From positions 11,526 through 75,525 of the forward strand of contig NZ_DATCYK010000028.1 in assembly GCF_036570325.1 (NCBI RefSeq): 64,000 bases of DNA, given 5' to 3'. The DNA comes from Prevotella sp. (lineage in GTDB: Bacteria; Bacteroidota; Bacteroidia; Bacteroidales; Bacteroidaceae). The position numbers were made by a program, and so were the translations under genes. This document shows, one piece after another, positions 5,988 to 46,505 of the stretch; position 1 is the stretch's first letter; each line of letters opens with the position of its first letter. The notes under the pieces are model-generated. The model searched no databases. It was not told where the DNA came from and saw only the letters and a program-made list of their open reading frames with translations.

Positions 5988-7583
5988 TTAGTGAAACATA
6001 TCGTCGCTTGCGGCCCAATCGAGCAGCTTATAATGCTTGTAGAGGTTCACGTTGCGCTGCTTGAAAGAATTGAAATCTTTGAGCTTGTTGTCGGTCCATC
6101 CGGTCTCGGCGATGGCTGCCATGCGGGGCAGAAGCTGATACTCGGCCAACTGCTTGTAAGGAATGTACTCCGTCCAGAGGTTACCTTGCACACCGATAAC
6201 GTGCTTCTTGAGCGCCTCCGAGGCGTCGTCGGGCACGGGGTTGTAGCTGTAGACCTTGTCAACGGGCAGGTATCCGCCGATAAGACGTATGTCCGTGCTC
6301 TTGTTCTGATAGTAGTCGAGATAGTAATAGTCCGTGGGCGTCATGATGGCGTCGAGTCCTCGCTCGGCAGCTTGCTGTCCGCCGGCCACGCCGCGCCAGC
6401 TCATGACGGTTGTGCCGGGAACGATGTCGCCCTCGAGAACTTCATCCCAACCTATCACATTTCGTCCCTTGGCCTCCAAGTGCTTGGCGATGACGTTGAG
6501 GAAATGGCACTGCAATTGGGCCTCGGCCGAGAATCCGTTGGATCCTTTCAGGCCCAAGCGCTTTATTTCGGCCTGACAGTCGGGGCAGGCTTCCCACCGT
6601 TTGCGGGGCGCCTCGTCGCCTCCGAGGTGAATGAACTTAGAGGGGAATATCTCGAGGAGCTCATCGAGCACGTTCTTAGCGAACTCGTAAGTCTTCGATT
6701 TGCCTGCGCAGAGAATGTCATCGAACACGCCCCACGACTGTGCCACCTCGTATGGACCGCCCGTGCAGCCCAGTTCGGGATAGGCAGTGAGGGCTGCCAG
6801 CATGTGGCCGGGCATGTCTATCTCGGGTATTATGGTGATGTAGCGGTCGGCGGCGTACTTCACGATTTCCTTCAGTTGGTCCTTGGTGTAGAAACCACCG
6901 TAGGGCACGCCGTCATACACAGGCGAGTTGTGGCCAATGACGGTTTGTTTGCGCACCGAACCCACCTCGGTCAATCGCGGGTAACGGTCTATCTGCACGC
7001 GCCATCCTTGGTCCTCGGTGAGGTGCCAATGGAAGGTGTTGAGGTTGTGCATGGCCAAAATGTCGATGTATTCCTTCACCAAAGCCACGCTGAAGAAATG
7101 GCGTCCGCAGTCGAGCATGCCACCGCGATAGCCAAAGCGGGGCTGGTCGGCGATGCGTGCGGCGGGCAGGTTGACGCTTGCCTGCTGCTCCACGGGCAGC
7201 GACTTGCGCAGGGTCTGTATGCCGTAGAACACGCCTGCCGGTGTGCGACCTTCGATGGTGACGCCCTTGGCCTTGACTGTGATGACATAGCCCTCGTCAT
7301 TGGCAATCTTCGCATTGAGCGCCAAGGTGATTGTTTTCTTGCCCGTGGCGGCCAGCTCTATGCCCGTCACTTCTTTTATGTATTGCTTCAAGAACTGCGC
7401 GTTGCGCATCATGGCCGCGTCATTGCCCACCACGTTGATGGCTGTAGCGCCATCGAGCACGAAGGCGGCTCCCTTGTTAGCCGTGATACTTTGGGGCAAC
7501 GGCACTACCTGATAATTGGCGTCGGCTGCCTGAAGGCCAAATGAGGCCATGGCAAGCGCCACGGAAAGTAAAGTTTTTCTCAT
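5988..7583 (-). CDS. beta-N-acetylhexosaminidase, GH20, secreted
   Basis: signal peptide; LDCGRHFF, HWHLTEDQGWR, PEIDMPGH, catalytic HLGGDE, GVQGNLWTE. Confidence 0.93.
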   Translation of the reverse strand: MRKTLLSVALAMASFGLQAADANYQVVPLPQSITANKGAAFVLDGATAINVVGNDAAMMRNAQFLKQYIKEVTGIELAATGKKTITLALNAKIANDEGYVITVKAKGVTIEGRTPAGVFYGIQTLRKSLPVEQQASVNLPAARIADQPRFGYRGGMLDCGRHFFSVALVKEYIDILAMHNLNTFHWHLTEDQGWRVQIDRYPRLTEVGSVRKQTVIGHNSPVYDGVPYGGFYTKDQLKEIVKYAADRYITIIPEIDMPGHMLAALTAYPELGCTGGPYEVAQSWGVFDDILCAGKSKTYEFAKNVLDELLEIFPSKFIHLGGDEAPRKRWEACPDCQAEIKRLGLKGSNGFSAEAQLQCHFLNVIAKHLEAKGRNVIGWDEVLEGDIVPGTTVMSWRGVAGGQQAAERGLDAIMTPTDYYYLDYYQNKSTDIRLIGGYLPVDKVYSYNPVPDDASEALKKHVIGVQGNLWTEYIPYKQLAEYQLLPRMAAIAETGWTDNKLKDFNSFKQRNVNLYKHYKLLDWAASDDMFH

Positions 7584-7646: not shown

Positions 7647-7654
7647 CAAAATTA
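7647..7654 (-). promoter_or_regulatory. -7 promoter box (TAATTTTG) for GH20
   Basis: caaaatta on + strand. Confidence 0.6.
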
Positions 7655-7716: not shown

Positions 7717-7910
7717 GGCCATCCTGCCAACAACCTCGGATGGGTCATCCAATAACATCGGACCGGTCTGACTAGTCCGACTGGTCCGACCCGTCCGACG
7801 ATAAAATCGCCCGTCCCATCGCGGCCCTTTGGCCGCTCCAAAAGGCCGCGATAGGGCGACAAAAGCAGCCTTTTCGCTGGCCCGAAAGCCCCCTTTCACC
7901 GCCCCCCCTC
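7717..7910. repeat. Left flank of four-helix-bundle gene: shared ~28-bp motif, family A array, 11-bp-period tract
   Basis: ggccatcctgccaacaacctcggatgggtc; tcggaccggtctgactagtccgactggtccgacccgtccgac; caaaaggccgc/gatagggcgac/aaaagcagcct/tttcgctggcc. Confidence 0.8.
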
Positions 7911-8019
7911 ACCACCAAGGGCCAACCATTTCCCACCGCTTAGCCTTTTTTAACGCACGGGGCGCCCTCGTTATCCCTCAAAAACGGTTAATTTGCAAAA
8001 TAATCTTAAGGATTTCACC

Positions 8020-8574
8020 ATGAGCGAAGCATTTCTCCAACAGAAAGGAGGCTACCGCCGACTCCGATCCTACCGGGCAGCCACCATTATCTACGACATC
8101 ACCTATTATTTTGCCACCCACTTCCTGCAAAAGGGCGACCGCACCGTCGACCAAATGATACAAGCCGCCCGCTCGGGTAAACAGAACATCGCCGAAGGCA
8201 GCGAGGCCGCCACCACCTCGGCCGAAACGGAAATGAAGCTGACCAATGTGGCCAAGGCAAGCCTCGAGGAATTGCTCATCGATTACGAGGACTATCTGCG
8301 CGTGAGGGCCAAACCGATATGGTCATCCTCCCACCCCCGCTGCCAAGCCATGAGGGCCTATACCGCCGGTGACCGCATAGCAAGCGAATATCCACGGCTG
8401 CTGCCCCGCCTGACGGACGAGGAAATGGCCAACCTATGCCTGACCCTCATCCACCAAACTACCTACATGCTCCGCAAACTCATCCTCCGCCAGCAGGAAA
8501 TGTTCCTCAAAGAAGGGGGCGTCAGGGAGCAGATGACCCGTGCACGGCTGCAAAGCAGGAGGGAAAGAGGGTAG
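8020..8574 (+). CDS. Four-helix-bundle protein (23S rRNA IVS-protein / Avd-like fold) with C-terminal suffix region
   Basis: DQMIQAARSGKQNIAEGS...KLTNVAKASLEELLIDYEDYLR is the family motif; ATG 8020 preferred over 7993. Confidence 0.85.
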   Translation: MSEAFLQQKGGYRRLRSYRAATIIYDITYYFATHFLQKGDRTVDQMIQAARSGKQNIAEGSEAATTSAETEMKLTNVAKASLEELLIDYEDYLRVRAKPIWSSSHPRCQAMRAYTAGDRIASEYPRLLPRLTDEEMANLCLTLIHQTTYMLRKLILRQQEMFLKEGGVREQMTRARLQSRRERG

Positions 8575-8594
8575 GGCTTAGCGGGCAGGTTGTG

Positions 8595-8711
8595 CCTCAG
8601 ACGGGTCGGATTGGTCCGACCCGTCCGACCAAAGAGCCATGCTCTCAACCCAATAGGCCATCTGCCAACCTCGGATTGGTCCAACCGGTCCGACTAGTCA
8701 GACCGGTCTGA
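8595..8711. repeat. Right flank of four-helix-bundle gene: two family A arrays and second copy of the shared motif
   Basis: gggtcggattggtccgacccgtccgacc; ggccatctgccaacctcggattggtcc; ggtccgactagtcagaccggtctga. Confidence 0.8.
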
Positions 8712-8768
8712 TTCCCTCAAGAGCCTTCAAAATCCACCAAAATCTTTGACGATTTCGGCTAATTGTCT

Positions 8769-8776
8769 TATCTTTG
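8769..8776 (+). promoter_or_regulatory. -7 promoter box TATCTTTG
   Basis: exact consensus, with TTTG about 25 nt upstream; makes the TTG start at 8763 unlikely. Confidence 0.7.
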
Positions 8777-8798: not shown

Positions 8799-9452
8799 AT
8801 GATAAAAAGAATCATGACGATAGCGGCACTGCTGCCCTTATTCGCCCTCGGGGCCATGGCCCAAGCCCCTGACGAGCGGCCCGGCCACGTCAATCCCGAG
8901 GACCGTGAGGTCGACATCGACCGCCCCACGTTCGTGCCAATGGTCAAAGTAGGAAAAGTGCTCGACCAAGGCGACTCCATACAATACGTGGAGCTGAACG
9001 ACGTGTGGTGCTATCCCAAGCCACAGTTCAGCAGCGCGGAGCAGCGACAAACATTCAACCGACTCGTCATGAACGTGAAAAAAGTGTTGCCCATCGCCAA
9101 GGAAGTCAACCAAATCATCATCGAAACCTATGACTACCTGCAAACACTGCCCAACAAGCAGGCCCGCGACGCCCATCTTAAATACGTGGAGAAAAGCATT
9201 AAGCAGGAATATACGCCCCGCATGAAGAAGCTCACCTACACGCAGGGAAAGCTCCTGATAAAGCTCGTCTACCGCGAGTGTGGCAGCTCCGCCTATGGCA
9301 CCCTGCAAGCCATCTTGGGCCCCGTGAGGGCCGGATTTTGGCAGGCTTTCGCTTGGACTTTCGGCGCCTCGCTGGCCAAAAAGTACGACCCCGACGGCGT
9401 AGACCGTATCACCGAGCGCATCGTGCGCCAAGTAGAAGCGGGTCAGTTATAA
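8799..9452 (+). CDS. DUF4294-like secreted protein
   Basis: signal peptide; LVMNVKKVLPIAK, KKLTYTQGKLLIKLVYRE, GFWQAFAWTFGASL typical of this Bacteroidetes family (from memory). Confidence 0.75.
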   Translation: MIKRIMTIAALLPLFALGAMAQAPDERPGHVNPEDREVDIDRPTFVPMVKVGKVLDQGDSIQYVELNDVWCYPKPQFSSAEQRQTFNRLVMNVKKVLPIAKEVNQIIIETYDYLQTLPNKQARDAHLKYVEKSIKQEYTPRMKKLTYTQGKLLIKLVYRECGSSAYGTLQAILGPVRAGFWQAFAWTFGASLAKKYDPDGVDRITERIVRQVEAGQL

Positions 9453-16158: not shown

Positions 16159-17043
16159 ATGAAAACCCTTCCTGCCCACATGGCCGTACTCATGGCCAAC
16201 ATTATTTTCGGACTCGGCGTCCCGGTAACCAAACTCCTGCTCGACAAATGGGTATCGCCCATGGGCTACATGGTCACCCGCTGCATCGGCGCGGCCGCCA
16301 TTTTTTGGCTCATCTCCTTGTTCATGCCCAAGGAAAAGGTGAGCCGTCACGACCTCATCGTCATCATGTTGGGCGGCCTGCTGGGCTTCGTCGTGTCGCA
16401 AACCCTCACCGCTTGGGCCCTCACCTACACCACCCCCGTTTACTTTTCGCTCATCGCCACCCTCACCCCCGTGGCCACAATGGTGTGCGCCTCACTCATG
16501 ATAGGTGAGAAAATGACCACCCGCGGCATTATCGCCGTGCTCATCGGCATAGCCGGTGCCATGCTCATGGTGCTCATGGGATGGCAGGGCGGCCGCGGCA
16601 CCAACGACTTGCTGGGCATAGGCCTCACCATTTTGAGCCTGCTCACATGGGCCGTCTACCTCATCATCACCCGCAAGGTATCGACCCGCTACACCGCCGT
16701 GACGCAGATGAAATGGGTGTTCCTCGTTTCCACGGTGGCCGTGCTGCCCTTCTCATGGAACGATCTCCTCACGGCGCCCCTCTACTCCTCCGCCACCCAA
16801 TGGGACGGTTTGCTCGAAATGGGCTTCATCGTCATCTTCGCCACCGTGGCCGGCTATTTCGCCATCCCCTTCGCCATGCGCTATCTCGAGGCCACGACCG
16901 TCAGCATTTACACCAATCTCCAGCCCATCGTCGCCTCCCTCGTGGCCATCGCCCTCATGCAGGATGTCCTCACGTGGGACAAGCCCGTGGCCCTCATCTT
17001 GGTGCTGCTGAGCGCGTACGTGGCACAGCCTCGGCGCTCTTAG
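16159..17043 (+). CDS. EamA/DMT family transporter
   Basis: about 10 TM helices in two EamA repeats; start moved to MKTLPAH because the 72 upstream codons are repeat-derived. Confidence 0.88.
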   Translation: MKTLPAHMAVLMANIIFGLGVPVTKLLLDKWVSPMGYMVTRCIGAAAIFWLISLFMPKEKVSRHDLIVIMLGGLLGFVVSQTLTAWALTYTTPVYFSLIATLTPVATMVCASLMIGEKMTTRGIIAVLIGIAGAMLMVLMGWQGGRGTNDLLGIGLTILSLLTWAVYLIITRKVSTRYTAVTQMKWVFLVSTVAVLPFSWNDLLTAPLYSSATQWDGLLEMGFIVIFATVAGYFAIPFAMRYLEATTVSIYTNLQPIVASLVAIALMQDVLTWDKPVALILVLLSAYVAQPRRS

Positions 17044-17185
17044 TCAGACGGGTCGGGCCGGTCAGACGGGTCCGACTAGTCGGATGGCTACCGCCCATAG
17101 GGCGGCTGTGCCGCCCCTACTACTCCAAAACTAACCATTCATCCTCCCAGACCTCCCAACTTTACTACTGCGGCTATGCCGCCTA
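17042..17185. repeat. Family A array, GCGGC hairpins and family B unit between convergent genes
   Basis: agtcagacgggtcgggccggtcagacgggtccgactagtcgga; ggcggctgtgccgcc; aaccattcatcc. Confidence 0.8.
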
Positions 17186-25167: not shown

Positions 25168-25182
25168 GGTAATGGGGGTTTT

Positions 25183-25396
25183 GGTTGGTGGTTGGGGAGG
25201 TTTTAGTTGGCAGTTGGGGAGTTGGGGGGATGAATGGTTAGCCGGGATTGGTGAGGGGTGGTAGTTGGGGGGATGAATGGTTAGTTGTTATTGGTTGAGG
25301 GTGAGTAGTTGGGGGGATGAATGGTTAGTTTTGTTTTTGCTCCTTCTATTTGCCTCAGCCCGGTCTGATTAGTCCGACTGGTCCGACTATTCCGAT
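25183..25396. repeat. Family B G-rich repeats (43-44-bp period) plus family A array
   Basis: three agttggggggatgaatggttag copies spaced 43 and 44 bp; cggtctgattagtccgactggtccgact. Confidence 0.8.
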
Positions 25397-25611: not shown

Positions 25612-26046
25612 TCACGCCCTGCTGACCAATTGGCGGCGTGGATCGAGGCCGTTGATTTTCATGAGGACCCAGCGATCGAGCAGCGAGCTCTGGCGCATCG
25701 ACTTGCGCATTTTGGCCCGATAGGCATACGACCGTGGATTGCGGGGCACGGGCTTCACCAGCCTGCGACACACCATTTCGACCATGTAGGCAAAGGTTAG
25801 GTCGCACCCGCGGGCGTCCTTCACGTCGCACACCGTGTAAACATCGCTCACCAGCTCCACGAGGTCGGTCGTGGTGCTCTGCCAACGCAGGCTGCCCCCG
25901 TCGCCACCATCAATGAGTTCCATCACGAATTGCTGCATTTCCTGCATCGCTTCCTCCCGAAGGGGTCTGAGTTCTGATTTCCTGAAAGTCTGTATGTGCC
26001 CCTGATACATCAATTTTACGTTTGTTTCTTCCATTTCTCTATTCAA
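25612..26046 (-). CDS. Hypothetical protein resembling the RteC C-terminal domain
   Basis: LRWQSTTTDLVELV and RKSMRQSSLLDR resemble RteC W-T-G-S-K-x-D-L-x-E-L and R-K...F-L-D motifs (from memory); promoter box at 26081-26088. Confidence 0.5.
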   Translation of the reverse strand: MNREMEETNVKLMYQGHIQTFRKSELRPLREEAMQEMQQFVMELIDGGDGGSLRWQSTTTDLVELVSDVYTVCDVKDARGCDLTFAYMVEMVCRRLVKPVPRNPRSYAYRAKMRKSMRQSSLLDRWVLMKINGLDPRRQLVSRA

Positions 26047-26149
26047 TTATTTATTAGGGTTAGTGGGTTGTTATCGGGTGCAAAGTTAAGCCCTTTCGTG
26101 GAAATAATATTTCAGTGAACAGTCGTAAGAAGTTAAGATAAGATAAAGG

Positions 26150-26430
26150 AGGTGGGCGGTTGAGGGGTTGGGGGATGAATGGTTTGCCTTGAGGGCGATA
26201 AGGTGAGAGGGTGAGGCGGCCTTGCCGCCGCTGTAGAGAGAGCGTCGGACGGGTCTGAGCTGTCGAATCGGTCCGATTAGTCTGACTGGTCCGACTCGTC
26301 CGACAGCTCCCTTTCCCCCCACCTCCTCACCCCCTCAGCCTGCCACCACGCCTCTTCTCCCTCCTCAAACCAGCCCTTTAGCTCGTCCAAAGGGCAGCTT
26401 TAAGGGCCCAAAAGGCCCACTTTTTCACAC
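26150..26430. repeat. Composite of family B, GCGGC hairpin, family A and 11-bp-period tract
   Basis: ggggatgaatggtt; ggcggccttgccgcc; gtccgattagtctgactggtccgactcgtccgac; tttagctcgtc/caaagggcagc/tttaagggccc/aaaaggcccac. Confidence 0.75.
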
Positions 26431-26560: not shown

Positions 26561-28801
26561 ATGACAAAAGGCAAAAAGGCCGGCAAACGACTGACCAAAA
26601 AACAATTGGCTGAGCGGATAGAGGAATTTTTCTCCGCCCTACCCGGAAAAACATTAAGTTTCAAAGAAATATTCAGAGCCCTCAAGCTCAACACCCACCC
26701 GCTCAAGATGCAGGCCATAGACATCATGGAGGAAATGGCGTGGGACGACTTTCTGGCCAAGGTTTCGGAAAATTCATACCGCCTCAACACCAATGGCCAA
26801 ATACAGGAAGGCACATTCCAGCGCAAGGCCAACGGCAAGAACTCCGTCATACCCGTGGATAGCGAGAAGCCCATCTTCGTGTCAGAGCGCAACTCCATGG
26901 GCGCCCTCACCGGCGACAAGGTAAAATTCTCGTTCATGGCTCGCCGCGTCAACCACATAAAGGAAGCGCAAGTCATCGAGATACTCGAGCGCAAGAAAGA
27001 CACCTTCGTGGGCCGCCTGAAGGTAGACAAGGACATGGCCTACCTCATACCCCAGTCCGACGTGCTGGCCCACAACATCATCATACCCCGCCGAAAGATA
27101 AAAGGCGGCAAGACAGACGACAAGGCCGTCGTGCGCGTAACGCAGTGGCCCGACGAGGAACGCAAGAGCCCCATCGGCGAAGTCATCGACATCTTGGGAC
27201 AGACGGGCGACAACGACGTCGAGATGAACACCATCCTCGCCCAATACGGACTGCCCTATAAATACCCCCAAGCCGTGGAGGAAGCCGCCAAGAAGATAAC
27301 CGGCGAGGTAACGAAGAAAGACCTTGACGAGCGCGAGGACTTCCGCCAAGTGTTCACCTGCACCATCGATCCCCGCGACGCCAAGGACTTCGACGACGCC
27401 CTCTCCATCCGCCTGCTCGACGCCCAAGGCCATCCCCTCACCCCGCAGGCCGCCAAGCAAGGCAAGGCAGCCCTCTACGAGGTGGGCGTGCACATAGCCG
27501 ACGTGAGCCACTACGTGACCGAAGGCTCCATCATCGACAAGGAAGCCGTCAAGCGAGCCACCAGCATTTACCTCGTCGACCGCACCATCCCCATGCTGCC
27601 CGAGCACCTCTGCAACTTCGTTTGCTCACTCCGCCCCAACGAGGAGAAGCTCGCCTACAGCGTCATCTTCACCATGGACGCCGACGCCGACATCAAATCA
27701 TCGCGCATAGTCCACACCGTCATCCGCAGCGACCGCCGCTACGCCTACGAGGAAGTACAACAAATCCTTGAGGACAACGGCGTCATCGACGGCACGGGAG
27801 AGCCCGCCCCACCCGCTCCCAAGGGCGGCTACAAGGGTGAGAACGCCCAACTGCTCATCCTCCTCGACCGACTGGCCAAGCAATTGCGTAGCAAACGATT
27901 CAAGAACGGCGCCGTGAAATTCGACCGAGAGGAGCTCCATTTCGACATCGACGAAAAGGGAAAGCCCACCCGCTGCTACTTCAAGAGCTCCAAGGACGCC
28001 AACAAGCTCATCGAGGAATTCATGCTGCTGGCCAACCGCACCGTGGCCGAGACCGTCGGAAAAGTAAAGAAAGGGCGCAAGGCAAAGACCCTTCCCTACC
28101 GCGTTCACGACAATCCCGACCCACAAAAAATGGAGACGCTGCGCCAATTCATCGCCAAATTCGGCTACAAAGTAAAGACCGATGGCACCAAGGGCGCCAT
28201 GGCCAAGAGCATTAACAAGCTCATGGACGACGTCGAAGGCAAGCGCGAGGGCAAAGTAATACAAACCGTGGCGCTCAGGGCCATGATGAAAGCCAAGTAC
28301 ACCACCCACAACATCGGCCACTTCGGGCTGGCCTTCGACTACTACACCCACTTTACCTCCCCCATACGCCGCTACCCCGACACCATCGTCCACCGACTCC
28401 TCACCCGCTACCAGCAAGGAGCGCGCAGCGCCAATGAGAAACATTGCGAGGAACTCTGCGAACATTGCTCCGACATGGAGCTCGTGGCACAGAACGCCGA
28501 GCGCGATTCCATCAAGTACAAGATGGTGGAATTCATGGCCGACAAGCTCGGACAGTCCTTCGACGCCCACATCAGCGGCATTACAAGCTACGGCATTTAC
28601 GCCGAGATCGACGACAACCACTGCGAGGGAATGATTCCCATGCGCGACTTGGATAACGACTACTACGAGTTCGACGAGCGCAACTTCTGCCTCGTGGGTC
28701 GCCGTCATCACCACAAATACCAGCTCGGCGACGCCATCCGCATCAAAGTGGCCAAGGCCAACCTCGAGAAAAAACAGCTCGACTTCGCCCTCGACGAGTA
28801 A
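26561..28801 (+). CDS. rnr: Ribonuclease R
   Basis: TIDPRDAKDFDDALS, GVHIADVSHYV, HFTSPIRRYPD, C-terminal S1 domain; promoter box TATCTTTG at 26461-26468. Confidence 0.96.
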   Translation: MTKGKKAGKRLTKKQLAERIEEFFSALPGKTLSFKEIFRALKLNTHPLKMQAIDIMEEMAWDDFLAKVSENSYRLNTNGQIQEGTFQRKANGKNSVIPVDSEKPIFVSERNSMGALTGDKVKFSFMARRVNHIKEAQVIEILERKKDTFVGRLKVDKDMAYLIPQSDVLAHNIIIPRRKIKGGKTDDKAVVRVTQWPDEERKSPIGEVIDILGQTGDNDVEMNTILAQYGLPYKYPQAVEEAAKKITGEVTKKDLDEREDFRQVFTCTIDPRDAKDFDDALSIRLLDAQGHPLTPQAAKQGKAALYEVGVHIADVSHYVTEGSIIDKEAVKRATSIYLVDRTIPMLPEHLCNFVCSLRPNEEKLAYSVIFTMDADADIKSSRIVHTVIRSDRRYAYEEVQQILEDNGVIDGTGEPAPPAPKGGYKGENAQLLILLDRLAKQLRSKRFKNGAVKFDREELHFDIDEKGKPTRCYFKSSKDANKLIEEFMLLANRTVAETVGKVKKGRKAKTLPYRVHDNPDPQKMETLRQFIAKFGYKVKTDGTKGAMAKSINKLMDDVEGKREGKVIQTVALRAMMKAKYTTHNIGHFGLAFDYYTHFTSPIRRYPDTIVHRLLTRYQQGARSANEKHCEELCEHCSDMELVAQNAERDSIKYKMVEFMADKLGQSFDAHISGITSYGIYAEIDDNHCEGMIPMRDLDNDYYEFDERNFCLVGRRHHHKYQLGDAIRIKVAKANLEKKQLDFALDE

Positions 28802-35906: not shown

Positions 35907-35919
35907 AAGGTGGAGATTG

Positions 35920-36010
35920 GTAGTTGAGGAGTTGGGGGGTTGAGGGGATGAATGGTTTGTTTTAAGATGAGGGAGTGGCAATGCCGCTCCTTATCCCCCA
36001 ACTCCTCACC
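35920..36010. repeat. Family B unit and GAGYGGC-AAT-GCCGCTC hairpin
   Basis: agttgaggagttggggggttgaggggatgaatggtt; ggcaatgccgctccttatcccc recurs at 43622-43644. Confidence 0.7.
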
Positions 36011-36018
36011 CCACAACC

Positions 36019-36621
36019 TTACTTCTTATAAAGTACGGGGTTAGTGGCGGGGTCGTTATACATCTTCATCTGACGATACACCTTCATGTATTTACGTCCT
36101 TGCTCAATGTCCTCAAGGAGCTGGTCGATGGCCGTCGAGAGGTCCACCTGCTGTTCCAAGAGCACGGCCAGCTTGGCGGCGCACTTCGAGCGATGGTCTT
36201 CCGTGGCGTCGGTACGCTCGGCCTGCTCACGCATGTGGTAAATCTTCAATGCCAGAATACTCAGACGGTCCACTGCCCACGCCGGGCTCTCGGTGTTGAT
36301 GCGGGCATCGGGCAAAACCTGCACGTCGCTGTACTTCTGTCGGAAGTAGCTGTCTATCTGTTCAACCAAGTCCGTGCGGTCCTGATTGCTGCGGTCTATG
36401 CGCCGCTTCAGGCCCAAAGCCTCCACCGGGTCGATATGAGGATCGCGGATGATGTCCTCAAAATGCCACTGCACCGTGTCTATCCAACACTTCAGATACA
36501 AGCGGTTCTCAATAGAGTCGCGCTCATAAGGATTATTGATAGGGGTTTCAATGTTGTCTTTCACATGGTAATCGGCAATCGCCTTGTTAAAGATTTCGTT
36601 GCAAGTTTCTGTAAAAGTCAT
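36019..36621 (-). CDS. DUF4254-like protein
   Basis: KCWIDTVQWHFEDIIR, RRIDRSNQDRTD, ESPAWAVDRLSIL; usual partner of GT9 in Bacteroidetes (from memory). Confidence 0.8.
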   Translation of the reverse strand: MTFTETCNEIFNKAIADYHVKDNIETPINNPYERDSIENRLYLKCWIDTVQWHFEDIIRDPHIDPVEALGLKRRIDRSNQDRTDLVEQIDSYFRQKYSDVQVLPDARINTESPAWAVDRLSILALKIYHMREQAERTDATEDHRSKCAAKLAVLLEQQVDLSTAIDQLLEDIEQGRKYMKVYRQMKMYNDPATNPVLYKK

Positions 36622-36779: not shown

Positions 36780-37310
36780 AATGGAATAGAATCATTCTTT
36801 TCATGCGATGTATATAATCCTCTTACCTGATATAATTTATCTTTTCTCCTATTATATATAATAAGGTAAACAGCCCACACCCCCACGCCTCAATCGTTTT
36901 CCCCATCTTCCGAGTTATCCACAAAAAGTGTGGATAACCCTGTTGAAAACCTTCTCATAAGCCCGTTGATAACTTGGTGCATATCCACACCCATCAGGTC
37001 GGAGGGCCGTCACCGTGGATATCCACAGCTTTATCCCGCGGTATTCATTGAGTTTTCAACCGTTTTTCAGCCAAAAAAGTTATCAACTTATCAACGCTTC
37101 GGGATTGTCCCCATTATTGTGGAAAACCATTCCAACCCATTGATTATCACTCAATAGATATTGCTCCAAGCAGTGGAAAGCCCTTTCTCCCGTGTTAATA
37201 GTTAAACTACCAAATTTTTACTCCTAAAGTTATGAACATATCCACAGCCTATCATCTTACTCTTTTTTTTATTCTTTAAAGAAAGAAAAGTAAATAAGAT
37301 AATAATGAGT
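36780..37310. other. Probable chromosomal replication origin (oriC)
   Basis: perfect DnaA boxes TTATCCACA 36915-36923 and TGTGGATAA 36929-36937; near-matches at 36964, 36981, 37014/37019, 37031, 37080, 37088, 37118, 37238; AT-rich tracts on both sides; gene-free. Confidence 0.8.
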
Positions 37311-37322
37311 TGGGGAGAAATG

Positions 37323-37455
37323 GGTTGGTGGTTGGGAAGTTGGGGGGATGAATGGTTTGATAATAAGGTTGGTGGTTGGGAGGTTGGGGGGATGAATAGT
37401 TTGAGAATAAGGTTGGTGGTTGGGAGGTTGAGGGGATGAATAATTTGTTGAGAAG
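37323..37455 (+). repeat. Three tandem 44-bp G-rich units (family B)
   Basis: ggttggtggttggga starts at 37323, 37367 and 37411. Confidence 0.9.
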
Positions 37456-37490
37456 GTGATGAGTTGTAGGTTTTGCGGCTTTTGCCGTAA

Positions 37491-39029: not shown

Positions 39030-39830
39030 TCGTATATAAATAAGGAGGAAAACATTTCGCTCCCTAAATCAGATAGATTGATAGGGCAAAGAGCTATGTC
39101 TTTCAATAAAAAAGCAGACGGTTCGTTTTCTAAATCGGCCGAATGGATAGGGCAAGGAGCTATGTCTTTAAATAAAGAAGCAGCTGGTTCGCTCTTTAAA
39201 TCGGCCGAGTTAATTGGGCAAAGAGCTACATTTTTCAATAAAAAAGCAGCCGGTTCGCTCCCTAAATCGGCCGAATGGATAGGGCTAAGAGATACATCTT
39301 TAAATGAAGAAGCAGCCGGTTCGCTCTCCTAAATCGGCCGAATGGATAGGGTAAAGAAATACGTCTTTAAATAAAAAAGCAGACGGTTCGCTCTCCAAAT
39401 CGGATGGAATTCTGACGCAGGAGGATTGGAATTTGAATAAGAATAGTTCTCTTTTCTCAAACAATTCCGCTGAAATCATCGGGCAAGAAAATTAGGATTT
39501 GAATAAAGAAGGATATATTTTCCTCGCTAAATCGAATAGCTCCATCGGGCTAAAAACTCAATATTCGAGCATGGAATCATCCTTTTCTCGAAGCAAGACA
39601 AATAAAGTCATCGGGCTAAAAACTCAATATTTGAGCGAGGAACCATGCTTTTCTCAAAGCAAGACAAATAAAGTCATCGGGCTAAAAACTCACTATTCGA
39701 GCATGGCCCCATATATATCTCAAAACAAGATAAATTAAACCATCGGGTAAGAACATAAAAAATTGAAAACAGAAGAATCATTTTCTCAAAATAATTCCCC
39801 TTTGATTGAGGGTGAAAATCAAATTTTACA
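39030..39830 (+). repeat. Degenerate tandem array of about 12 x 66-bp units
   Basis: unit starts at 39056, 39122, 39188, 39254, 39320, 39387; atcggg anchors at 39478, 39544, 39610, 39676, 39742; reads as 22-aa repeats. Confidence 0.9.
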
Positions 39831-43568: not shown

Positions 43569-43645
43569 GTCGGACGGGTCAGACTAGTCCGACCGGTCCG
43601 ACCAGTCCGAGCTCCATGAGCGGCAATGCCGCTCCTTATCCCCCT
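43569..43645. repeat. Family A array plus hairpin between menB and menC
   Basis: gtcggacgggtcagactagtccgaccggtccgaccagtccga; gagcggc-aat-gccgctc. Confidence 0.85.
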
Positions 43646-45739: not shown

Positions 45740-45755
45740 AAGCTGTGGAAGGCCT

Positions 45756-46505
45756 TTAGGCCTCAATCACACTCACCGTCATGGTGATGTCGTTAAGCGG
45801 CCGGTCGTCGGGCGAAGTGGCGCACTGCTGTATGCGCTCCACGACGTCGAGGCCCTCGATCACCTCACCGAACACGGTGTATTGGTTGTCGAGGAAGGGC
45901 GTGCCGCCCATGGTGGTGTAGGCATGGGTCTGCTCCGGCGTGAAAGCGGGCCGCCCCATGGCCTTACATTCGGCCTTGGTGTCGGCGATGATTTGGTCCT
46001 GCAAGGCCTGCAAACCGGCCCGGTCGCGCTTGCGGCGCAGGTCCATGATGGCGTCATGGTGGAGCCGTGCCAGCTTGTCGAACACTTGTTGCTCCTGCTG
46101 CATGGCCATTTGGCGCTCCATCTGCTTGAGTTCGGCAGGTTTGTAGGTTTTTCCCCACACGATGTAAAACTGGCTGCCGCTGCTCTCCCGCTGCGGGTTG
46201 ACTTCGTCGCCAAGGCGGGCCGCGCTCAGCGCACCACGCTTATGGAAGCGTTGGGGATAAGCAAACTCGGCCGGAAGCGTGTAGTCGGGGCCGCCCGTTC
46301 CGAGCCGTTTGCCCTTGGGAGCGCCCTTGCTGTCGGGGTCGCCACCCTGAATCATGAAGTCCTTGATGACCCGATGGAAAAGCGTTCCATCGAAATAGCC
46401 CTCCCGGGCCAGCTTAATGAAGTTGTCACGGTGGGCGGGCGTCTCGTCGTAAAGGCTGACGAGGATGTCGCCTTCGGTAGTGCTGATTTTGATGTTTGTA
46501 GGCAT
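45756..46505 (-). CDS. Cyclophilin-type peptidyl-prolyl isomerase with helical insertion
   Basis: LFHRVIKDFMIQGGD, SSGSQFYIV, LDNQYTVFGEV; start moved to MPTNIK. Confidence 0.92.
   Translation of the reverse strand: MPTNIKISTTEGDILVSLYDETPAHRDNFIKLAREGYFDGTLFHRVIKDFMIQGGDPDSKGAPKGKRLGTGGPDYTLPAEFAYPQRFHKRGALSAARLGDEVNPQRESSGSQFYIVWGKTYKPAELKQMERQMAMQQEQQVFDKLARLHHDAIMDLRRKRDRAGLQALQDQIIADTKAECKAMGRPAFTPEQTHAYTTMGGTPFLDNQYTVFGEVIEGLDVVERIQQCATSPDDRPLNDITMTVSVIEA

Follow-up and report, generated by a model that had tools for sequence, protein, structure and literature searches.

The window analysed here, a 64,000-nucleotide stretch of a Prevotella sp. assembly (contig NZ_DATCYK010000028.1, C28:11526-75525), carries a solitary gene for a 184-amino-acid four-helix-bundle protein between arrays of a 9-bp unit, GTCNGAC-NN. 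Comparison with homologous loci indicates that this locus is very probably one copy of a widespread compact cassette, in which a protein and its cognate 9-bp arrays form a pair. The fuller reading of the same sequence comparisons, in which the protein of the cassette would also recognise its arrays directly, has in our judgement about an even chance of being correct.

Ninety-eight homologous loci were compared, consisting of the same-genus matches and the best 80 of at least 593 relatives, with relatives from the phyla Bacteroidota, Planctomycetota, Verrucomicrobiota, Lentisphaerota, Acidobacteriota and Myxococcota. Within the genus the gene is patchy (present in 12 of 24 sampled genomes, in one to five copies). 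Tandem arrays flanked the gene in all of the first 11 loci fetched; by eye, the period was 9 bp and the unit was different at each locus. Analysis with Tandem Repeats Finder revealed 1.87 arrays of period 9, 18, 27, 36 or 45 per kb at less than 400 bp from the gene, compared with 0.095 per kb at more than 600 bp. Such an array occurred on at least one side of the gene in 74 of 92 loci and on both sides in 36. The predominant periods were 9 (159), 18 (58) and 27 (29), with 10 and 20 as a minor class. Among intergenic regions, such an array was present in 61% of those flanking the gene (102/166) and in 4% of the others at the same loci (5/118), an odds ratio of 36 obtained with crude calls of open reading frames (ORFs) in the control regions. 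The original prediction had raised the possibility that the arrays are enriched around genes of this kind; this holds across the homologues for the 9-bp period, whereas the GTCNGAC sequence itself is found only in the nearest clade. Coincidence in a repeat-rich genome has a negligible probability as an explanation. Arrays occur in about one quarter of the intergenic regions of this genome and would therefore fall on both flanks of some 6% of genes, but the pattern recurs across the 98 loci, and the motif found on the flanks of the gene is private to this locus.

The sequence of the repeat unit follows the protein. When unit families were mapped onto a maximum-likelihood tree of 97 proteins, 33 changes were required, compared with a mean of 53.9 after shuffling, and none of 200 shuffles gave a value as low. 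All GTCNGAC arms and all TCAGAAT-type arms that were assigned fall within one clade (100/99 support), which also includes one CTCNGAG locus. The three types of arm have a TCNGA core in common, and the hosts of this clade belong to four Bacteroidales families (Prevotellaceae, Muribaculaceae, Paludibacteraceae and Bacteroidaceae). The three closest homologues carry GTCNGAC arms; over the aligned stretch only, they are identical to the protein studied here at 73% (Alloprevotella rava DSM 22548), 70-72% (genome G292) and 75% (a fragment in genome G247). Synonymous sites are saturated in comparison with the A. rava and G292 homologues (synonymous divergence, dS, undefined; non-synonymous divergence, dN, 0.21-0.23), and at such a distance unconstrained flanks would have lost all resemblance. 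Since GTCNGAC was kept despite this saturation, the unit is held either by selection or by homogenisation with dispersed copies. Arrays that are non-cognate to the GTCNGAC protein include ATGGGCNNN and CTATAGANN.

Cassettes from different phyla were also seen to group in a single tight clade of the proteins, whose internal branches are very short. They come from Planctomycetota, Verrucomicrobiota, Acidobacteriota, Kiritimatiellota and Myxococcota (loci L069, L082, L088-L093, L098, L099, L102, L106, L110, L113, L114 and L116-L118). Their units are related to ATAGGACCT and ATGGGACTT, and this grouping suggests recent transfer of cassettes between phyla.

Comparison of genomes revealed that cognate arrays are dispersed well beyond the cassette. 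The three-unit GTCNGAC pattern was found in 17 of 301 same-genus genomes, with controls near zero, and G292, whose single copy of the gene is the nearest homologue within the genus, contains 962+954 matches to the GTCNGAC pattern. Four patterns were counted in five genomes whose cassettes have different arms (Table 1). In four of the five, the cassette's own arm unit is scattered at many loci (28-78 matches), and it is mostly absent from the genomes with other arms. The reversed-pattern control for CTAAT gave 11 matches in G318 and four in G260; the remaining controls gave none. Genome G318 has three paralogues of the gene, one of which lies between ATGGGC arrays and another beside a CTATAGA array.

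Table 1. Matches (forward plus reverse) to four unit patterns in five genomes that carry the cassette.
Genome	Arm unit of the cassette	GTCNGAY	ATGGGC	CTATAGA	CTAAT
A. rava (G317)	GTCNGAC	78	0	0	0
G318	ATGGGC	0	72	62	0
G260	CTATAGA	22	0	58	6
G319	CTAATT	0	0	0	28
P. jejuni (G320)	CTATAAGCC (own arm pattern outside the matrix)	0	0	0	25

In the host assembly (G000, 2.96 Mb), 58 arrays of at least three GTCNGAC-family units were identified, compared with none in a shuffled copy; 14 of them lie in the window and 15 on the 76 kb of contig C28. They occupy intergenic DNA of the convergent, divergent and co-directional kinds, and their modal length is five units. Analysis of polarity showed that units of the R type (GTCRGAC) precede units of the Y type (GTCYGAC) in 28 of the 58 arrays, the reverse order being found in one. 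Because of this fixed polarity, gene-less arrays resemble a pair of inverted arms joined directly, with no gene between them. Each gene-less array folds alone (z -2.4 to -7.5).

A second repeat family with an 8-bp period (GGTTGGGG... with GATGAAT), sometimes in a 43-44-bp higher-order repeat, was observed in the window at 25177-25330, 35910-36020 and 37323-37447, where it forms gene-less hairpins with a G-rich and a C-rich arm. The same family encloses a classical TIGR02436 gene on contig C54 (2776-3090; G000:C54:2500-3350), and a third four-helix-bundle gene, on contig C43 (1800-2126), lies between GTAAAAGG-type arms. Each of the three family genes in the assembly, on C28, C54 and C43, hence has its own kind of arms.

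The gene in the window is intact, running on the + strand from an ATG at 8020 to a stop codon at 8572-8574, and is single-copy in the assembly. Analysis with NCBIfam placed TIGR04258 ('four helix bundle suffix domain') at residues 133-181 with 76.7 bits (cut-off 40) and TIGR02436 at residues 17-86 with 27.9 bits (cut-off 24). The protein carries the invariant motif GDRTxDQMxQAARSGKQNIxEG. An AlphaFold2 model of the monomer, built on 19 homologues, is all-helical and was predicted with confidence (pLDDT 86.9, pTM 0.81). The top structures in a Foldseek search were chains of 2RLD, the S23p-family protein BT_0352 (template modelling (TM) score normalised to the target up to 0.78, probability 1.0), and 8UB7_E, the accessory-protein (Avd) chain of the ribonucleoprotein of a diversity-generating retroelement (DGR). 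A profile search of PDB sequences gave XCC0516 (2GSC; E 0.009) as the sole solved relative by sequence. The predicted model has the up-down four-helix-bundle fold of 2RLD and 2GSC, and together with the two family matches above their cut-offs this upholds the S23p/Avd-like assignment proposed at the outset. Pfam and NCBIfam scans gave four-helix-bundle families only; domains of a transposase or of another enzyme were absent. Compared with a second strain, whose DNA is 98.66% identical, the gene shows nine substitutions, two of which alter an amino acid; the gene is under constraint. No defence family in PADLOC matched the protein at E <=0.01, and a known defence system was rejected on this basis.

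It is extremely improbable that the gene is the Avd of a DGR. A common superfamily and the match to 8UB7_E (target-normalised TM 0.75) speak for this identity. Avd itself acts in association with nucleic acid and with an enzyme as its partner. However, as had been stated beforehand, the window contains neither a reverse transcriptase nor rRNA, and no Rfam family matched anywhere in it. The only RVT_1 match of the assembly (G000:C56:228379-229032) is on another contig, C56, which is free of arrays. The repeats here comprise short tandem arrays and hairpins; a long imperfect pair resembling template and variable repeats is missing, and Avd lacks the suffix domain. Avd of a DGR was accordingly rejected for want of a reverse transcriptase nearby.

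The organisation of the locus is summarised in Table 2. A matching direct-repeat motif on the two flanks, part of the original prediction, proved to be real and above chance: for the 30-nt pattern with up to three mismatches, 0.00 matches are expected from shuffles. Its two copies differ by one substitution and two indels (1 and 3 nt). BLAST of each copy against the assembly returned the partner copy only, besides chance-level matches of no more than 14 nt. The motif is private to this locus and no general feature of arrays, the latter idea being rejected because it occurs beside no other array in the assembly. The 3' half of the motif (CTCGGATKGGTC) is itself a degenerate array unit, and each copy precedes one outer array, so that the gene is bounded by motif copies and arrays on both sides, as first described. 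The outer arrays are both direct and inverted repeats because the unit is almost a palindrome. As a direct repeat, motif and array extend over 59 nt (7740-7798 and 8653-8711; 71% identical, ungapped); as an inverted repeat, the arrays extend over 42 nt (7757-7798 and 8671-8712; 83% complementary). These complementary termini enclose the ORF, yet each arm folds alone too. The first array on the right forms a near-perfect hairpin with 14-nt arms (93% complementary) and a 4-nt loop, starting 23 nt past the stop codon. Translation of the arrays as tripeptide repeats was rejected; the frame allows it in one relative (L002), but here the arrays lie outside the ORF. In the second strain the 224-bp spacer with arrays has no changes, compared with differences of 0.8-1.7% in the adjoining genes.

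Table 2. Features of the four-helix-bundle locus (positions in the window).
Feature	Position	Strand	Description
Left copy of the direct-repeat motif	7717-7746	+	GGCCATCCTGCCAACAACCTCGGATGGGTC; 30 nt, 3' half like the array unit
Left 9-bp array	7757-7800		one GTCRGAC-type unit, then four GTCYGAC units; -25.8 kcal/mol, z -4.67
G+C-rich hairpin between left array and gene	7812-7858		21-nt arms, 5-nt loop; -32.5 kcal/mol, z -5.30
Relaxed -7 box TAATTTG (putative)	7989-7995	+	TAnnTTTG minus one base; 31 nt upstream of the start codon
Four-helix-bundle gene	8020-8574	+	TIGR02436 core plus TIGR04258 suffix
Right array 1	8597-8629		two R-type, then two Y-type units; -22.9 kcal/mol, z -3.53
Right copy of the direct-repeat motif	8656-8681	+	GGCCATCTGCCAACCTCGGATTGGTC; 26 nt
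Right array 2	8671-8712		inverted and direct repeat of the left array; -19.1 kcal/mol, z -2.36

In the window, small G+C-rich hairpins of the form GCGGC-loop-GCCGC, with no T-run after them, were seen by eye close to many arrays, at distances of up to about 40 nt (~18-36, 7812-7858, 17090-17115, 26205-26225, 37472-37488, 43612-43630 and 45745-45760). It is possible that such a hairpin and an array make up a composite element.

Promoters of Bacteroidota differ from those of the sigma-70 type and have the -7 consensus TAnnTTTG, in which form promoter boxes were sought. Canonical boxes were found at 7654 (-) ahead of the GH20 hexosaminidase gene on the left (5988-7583, -) and at 8769 (+) ahead of the DUF4294 gene on the right (8799-9452, +). 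For the four-helix-bundle gene itself only the relaxed box (Table 2) was found. In this copy the left array probably falls between two divergent promoters, in DNA that is not transcribed, and the right arrays would belong to the 3' region of the gene. Among relatives with a canonical -7 box (12 loci), the box is upstream of the upstream array in 10, and downstream arrays in relatives begin 10-100 nt past the stop codon. Arrays would hence be positioned in the 5' and 3' untranslated regions of most cassettes, a placement that favours action at the RNA level without proving it.

The closest published thing to the cassette is the ORF-bearing intervening sequence (IVS) of 23S rRNA. Such elements are inserted in helix 25 or 45 of a 23S rRNA gene. 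In Coxiella burnetii the S23p ORF of the IVS is enclosed by a 28-bp stem and preceded by tandem GACAGAT heptamers, and RNase III cuts the IVS out; ORF-bearing IVSs of 23S rRNA occur in Leptospira and Brucella as well (PMC4990558 and citations therein). Both elements have a small ORF of the PF05635/TIGR02436 family within complementary termini and short tandem repeats alongside, and both are patchy in distribution with a horizontally acquired look, an origin from mobile elements having long been suspected. The cassette differs in its extra C-terminal TIGR04258 suffix, in a period of 9 instead of 7, in flanks that are each a hairpin array and in the dispersal of its arrays through the genome. 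Its location also differs, since the present copy lies between protein-coding genes and not in rRNA. An rRNA IVS proper was rejected for this locus on account of its neighbours, GH20 and DUF4294, and of a window without rRNA.

A related explanation, which we regard as rather improbable, is that the locus is an RNA element of the IVS type. The arrays would then be RNase III substrates through which the cassette transcript is freed or insulated from neighbouring transcripts, as happens in 23S rRNA, the protein would be unrelated to them and the dispersed arrays would be leftover arms. The Coxiella precedent is in keeping with this analysis, as are the complementarity of the outer arms, the arrays in untranslated regions of relatives and the R...Y form of gene-less arrays, which is expected of fused arms. 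However, the stable folding of each arm alone disfavours long-range pairing, the left arm here lies between divergent promoters, and a stem alone needs neither a fixed 9-nt period nor a unit conserved within a clade. Such an element is compatible with a protein that recognises its arrays and is not an exclusive rival to it.

Comparison of chromosomal contexts showed that genomes differ in the site of the cassette, since GH20 or DUF4294 stands beside it in none of the other 98 loci. The exact protein occurs in two assemblies only, both from one soil-metagenome project and with an identical layout. The DNA from GH20 to DUF4294 has no close relative among 300 same-genus genomes (best 76-78% nucleotide identity), and GH20 is adjacent to DUF4294 in none of these. 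The empty site once anticipated, with GH20 next to DUF4294, was thus not found; in relatives the RNase R gene (rnr) lies between the two, with the GH20/rnr junction present in G023 and the rnr/DUF4294 junction in G222. In the window rnr is located 19 kb off, at 26561-28801, directly after the GTCNGAC array at 26244-26304. The implied rearrangement thus has arrays at each of its two junctions here. Recombination at arrays would fit as the origin of this rearrangement, though the arrangement is no proof of it.

Further observations concern the sites of individual cassettes. In L014 (G023:C67), from the nearest relative sampled, a gene-less hairpin of the 8-bp period, with G-rich and C-rich arms, lies by the start of GH20, the position of the left side of the cassette here, and is followed by rnr. 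In G292 a tRNA gene seems to precede the cassette, as judged by visual inspection of the upstream sequence. DNA methylase genes adjoin three of the first 11 same-genus loci: L003 and L009 are directly after genes of the HsdM and Eco57I types, and in L006 (G005:C6:1-2713) a D12-class adenine methylase (PF02086, 25.7 bits) is represented by an N-terminal fragment of 52 codons, which abuts the left arm. This cassette may have inserted into that methylase gene.

The period specific to the subfamily, the unit specific to the clade and the co-distribution of cassette and arrays among genomes make direct recognition the most economical reading. Gene and arrays act as a co-evolving entity: the period is fixed for this protein subfamily, the unit sequence is fixed within a clade, and the cassette's own unit is dispersed over the genome of the host in gene-less hairpins of about five units each. 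In the mechanism considered most likely, the protein would recognise the units of its own arrays. It is probably oligomeric, as are its solved relatives, a homopentameric toroid being characteristic of the family. Its target may be RNA, in view of the apparent place of the arrays in the untranslated regions of most relatives, or duplex DNA, in view of the left array between divergent promoters here. Such recognition would let the protein control, process or protect its own cassette and act on dispersed copies, and it may have a part in spreading the arrays. A precedent for contact with nucleic acid exists in the family, the Avd chain of the DGR ribonucleoprotein being among the best fold matches.

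Several findings weigh against direct recognition. If gene and arms were inherited together in a single mobile unit, this alone would yield the clustering on the tree, and the loci are related, so that kin are not independent and p-values overstate the association. No recognised nucleic-acid-binding motif was identified in the protein; the Pfam score for PF05635 (23S_rRNA_IVP, 23S rRNA intervening-sequence protein), 26.1, is under the gathering score of 33.8; and the Foldseek E-values are weak (0.24-1.3). The left array here is outside any obvious transcript of the gene. The arrays found in a quarter of the intergenic regions bracket other genes too, namely an EamA gene (16159-17043) and an orphan ORF (25615-26043), so flanking within this genome alone is weak evidence. 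GTCNGAC arrays also occur without a detected GTCNGAC-type cassette in G260, G131, G017 and G068 (completeness 89%, 99%, 99% and 69%, respectively), with a few to 77 pattern matches per genome; cassette loss, incomplete assembly or independence of the arrays could account for these genomes. In the host assembly, GTCNGAC arrays are confined to contigs of higher G+C content (15 on C28 at 54.6% G+C, none on the 799-kb C56 at 43.3%), and array density rises with contig G+C (Spearman's rho 0.71, 31 contigs). The bin is heterogeneous and may combine DNA of two related populations, and counts for the 'own genome' need care.

Some of these points would be expected if the arrays were autonomous hairpins, REP-like or terminator-like, on which a mobile or dispensable four-helix-bundle gene lands or recombines with no functional relation to them. 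We consider this improbable. The density of arrays on contig C28 in intergenic DNA of all kinds, the other bracketed genes, the genomes with arrays and no matching cassette, and the arrays at both junctions in this contig of the rearrangement implied by the GH20/rnr and rnr/DUF4294 junctions of two different relatives are all as such autonomy predicts. Against it stands an enrichment of about 15-fold beside the gene over other intergenic regions of the same loci, together with a period that is constant over at least six phyla while the other repeats of the hosts differ. Arm units, moreover, follow the protein clade across four host families, and where paralogues share a genome their arms differ, a separate dispersed family corresponding to each.

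A likeness to the RAYT-REP/REPIN system, reportedly described by Nunvar et al. in 2010 and by Bertels and Rainey in 2011, had been pointed out in the original prediction. It is sound as to layout and distribution (58 arrays, one gene), as in both systems a single-copy gene is flanked by short palindromic repeats found tens to hundreds of times in intergenic DNA. Different gene clades also pair with different repeat families, which is seen here in the clustering on the tree and in the paralogues of G318. It fails as to the protein, since RAYTs are HUH/Y1 transposase-like, whereas the present protein is a helical bundle without an HUH/Y1 or other recognised catalytic domain. Further differences are the tandem arrays of a 9-bp unit, compared with the single hairpins or doublets of REPs, and the patchy occurrence of this gene at different sites in different genomes.

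Dispersed tandem repeats of a heptamer (GGGNATC) in Xanthomonas and Nostoc have been read as G-quadruplex formers (Rehm et al. 2015, PMC4692102), a paper that makes no mention of S23p, an intervening sequence or a four-helix-bundle protein. They resemble the arrays studied here in being lineage-specific, over-represented in intergenic DNA, of few short units and of unexplained origin, and differ from them in period and sequence. No published description of the cassette outside 23S rRNA was found in full-text searches. This study adds a statistical treatment of the suffix-bearing subfamily with period 9, a tree of its proteins, an argument from saturated synonymous sites and a matrix that compares dispersed cognate arrays between genomes.

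Other features of the window were also recorded. The orphan ORF at 25615-26043 (-) encodes 143 amino acids without a Pfam or PADLOC match and is positioned between the GTCNGAC arrays at 25363-25395 and 26244-26304; G-rich arrays of the 8-bp family are present outside its region at 25177-25330 and ~26130-26200. Long arrays with a 66-bp period, unrelated to the 9-bp family, were found by Tandem Repeats Finder at 39080-39790 (4.9 and 3.2 copies, 83-84% matches). Within 330 bp of a long intergenic region (36915-37246) lies a cluster of six DnaA-box-like sites (TTATCCACA, up to one mismatch); it includes the only two perfect matches of the window and marks a possible replication origin.

The very large PF05635/TIGR02436 family has solved structures, yet to our knowledge no function outside DGRs. 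A strict link between its proteins and lineage-specific tandem arrays would supply a ligand for the family, of which the suffix-bearing subfamily alone has at least 593 relatives, and cultured carriers of the cassette are available in Alloprevotella rava DSM 22548 and Prevotella jejuni DSM 26989. The link would also offer an origin for dispersed short-unit arrays such as those of PMC4692102, and rRNA intervening sequences that code for a protein would come to be seen as one place where a general cassette lands. In its broadest form the idea is only tentative, and we hold it to be doubtful as a whole: S23p/four-helix-bundle proteins would be sequence-specific readers of short tandem repeats, each clade with its own unit and each subfamily with a set period (7, 8 or 9 nt), and the cassette would seed, maintain or exploit cognate arrays throughout the genome. 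If true, this would constitute a non-enzymatic counterpart of RAYT-REP, and it would account both for the origin of rRNA intervening sequences that carry an ORF and for the unexplained intergenic tandem arrays, with units of 7-9 nt, found in many bacteria.

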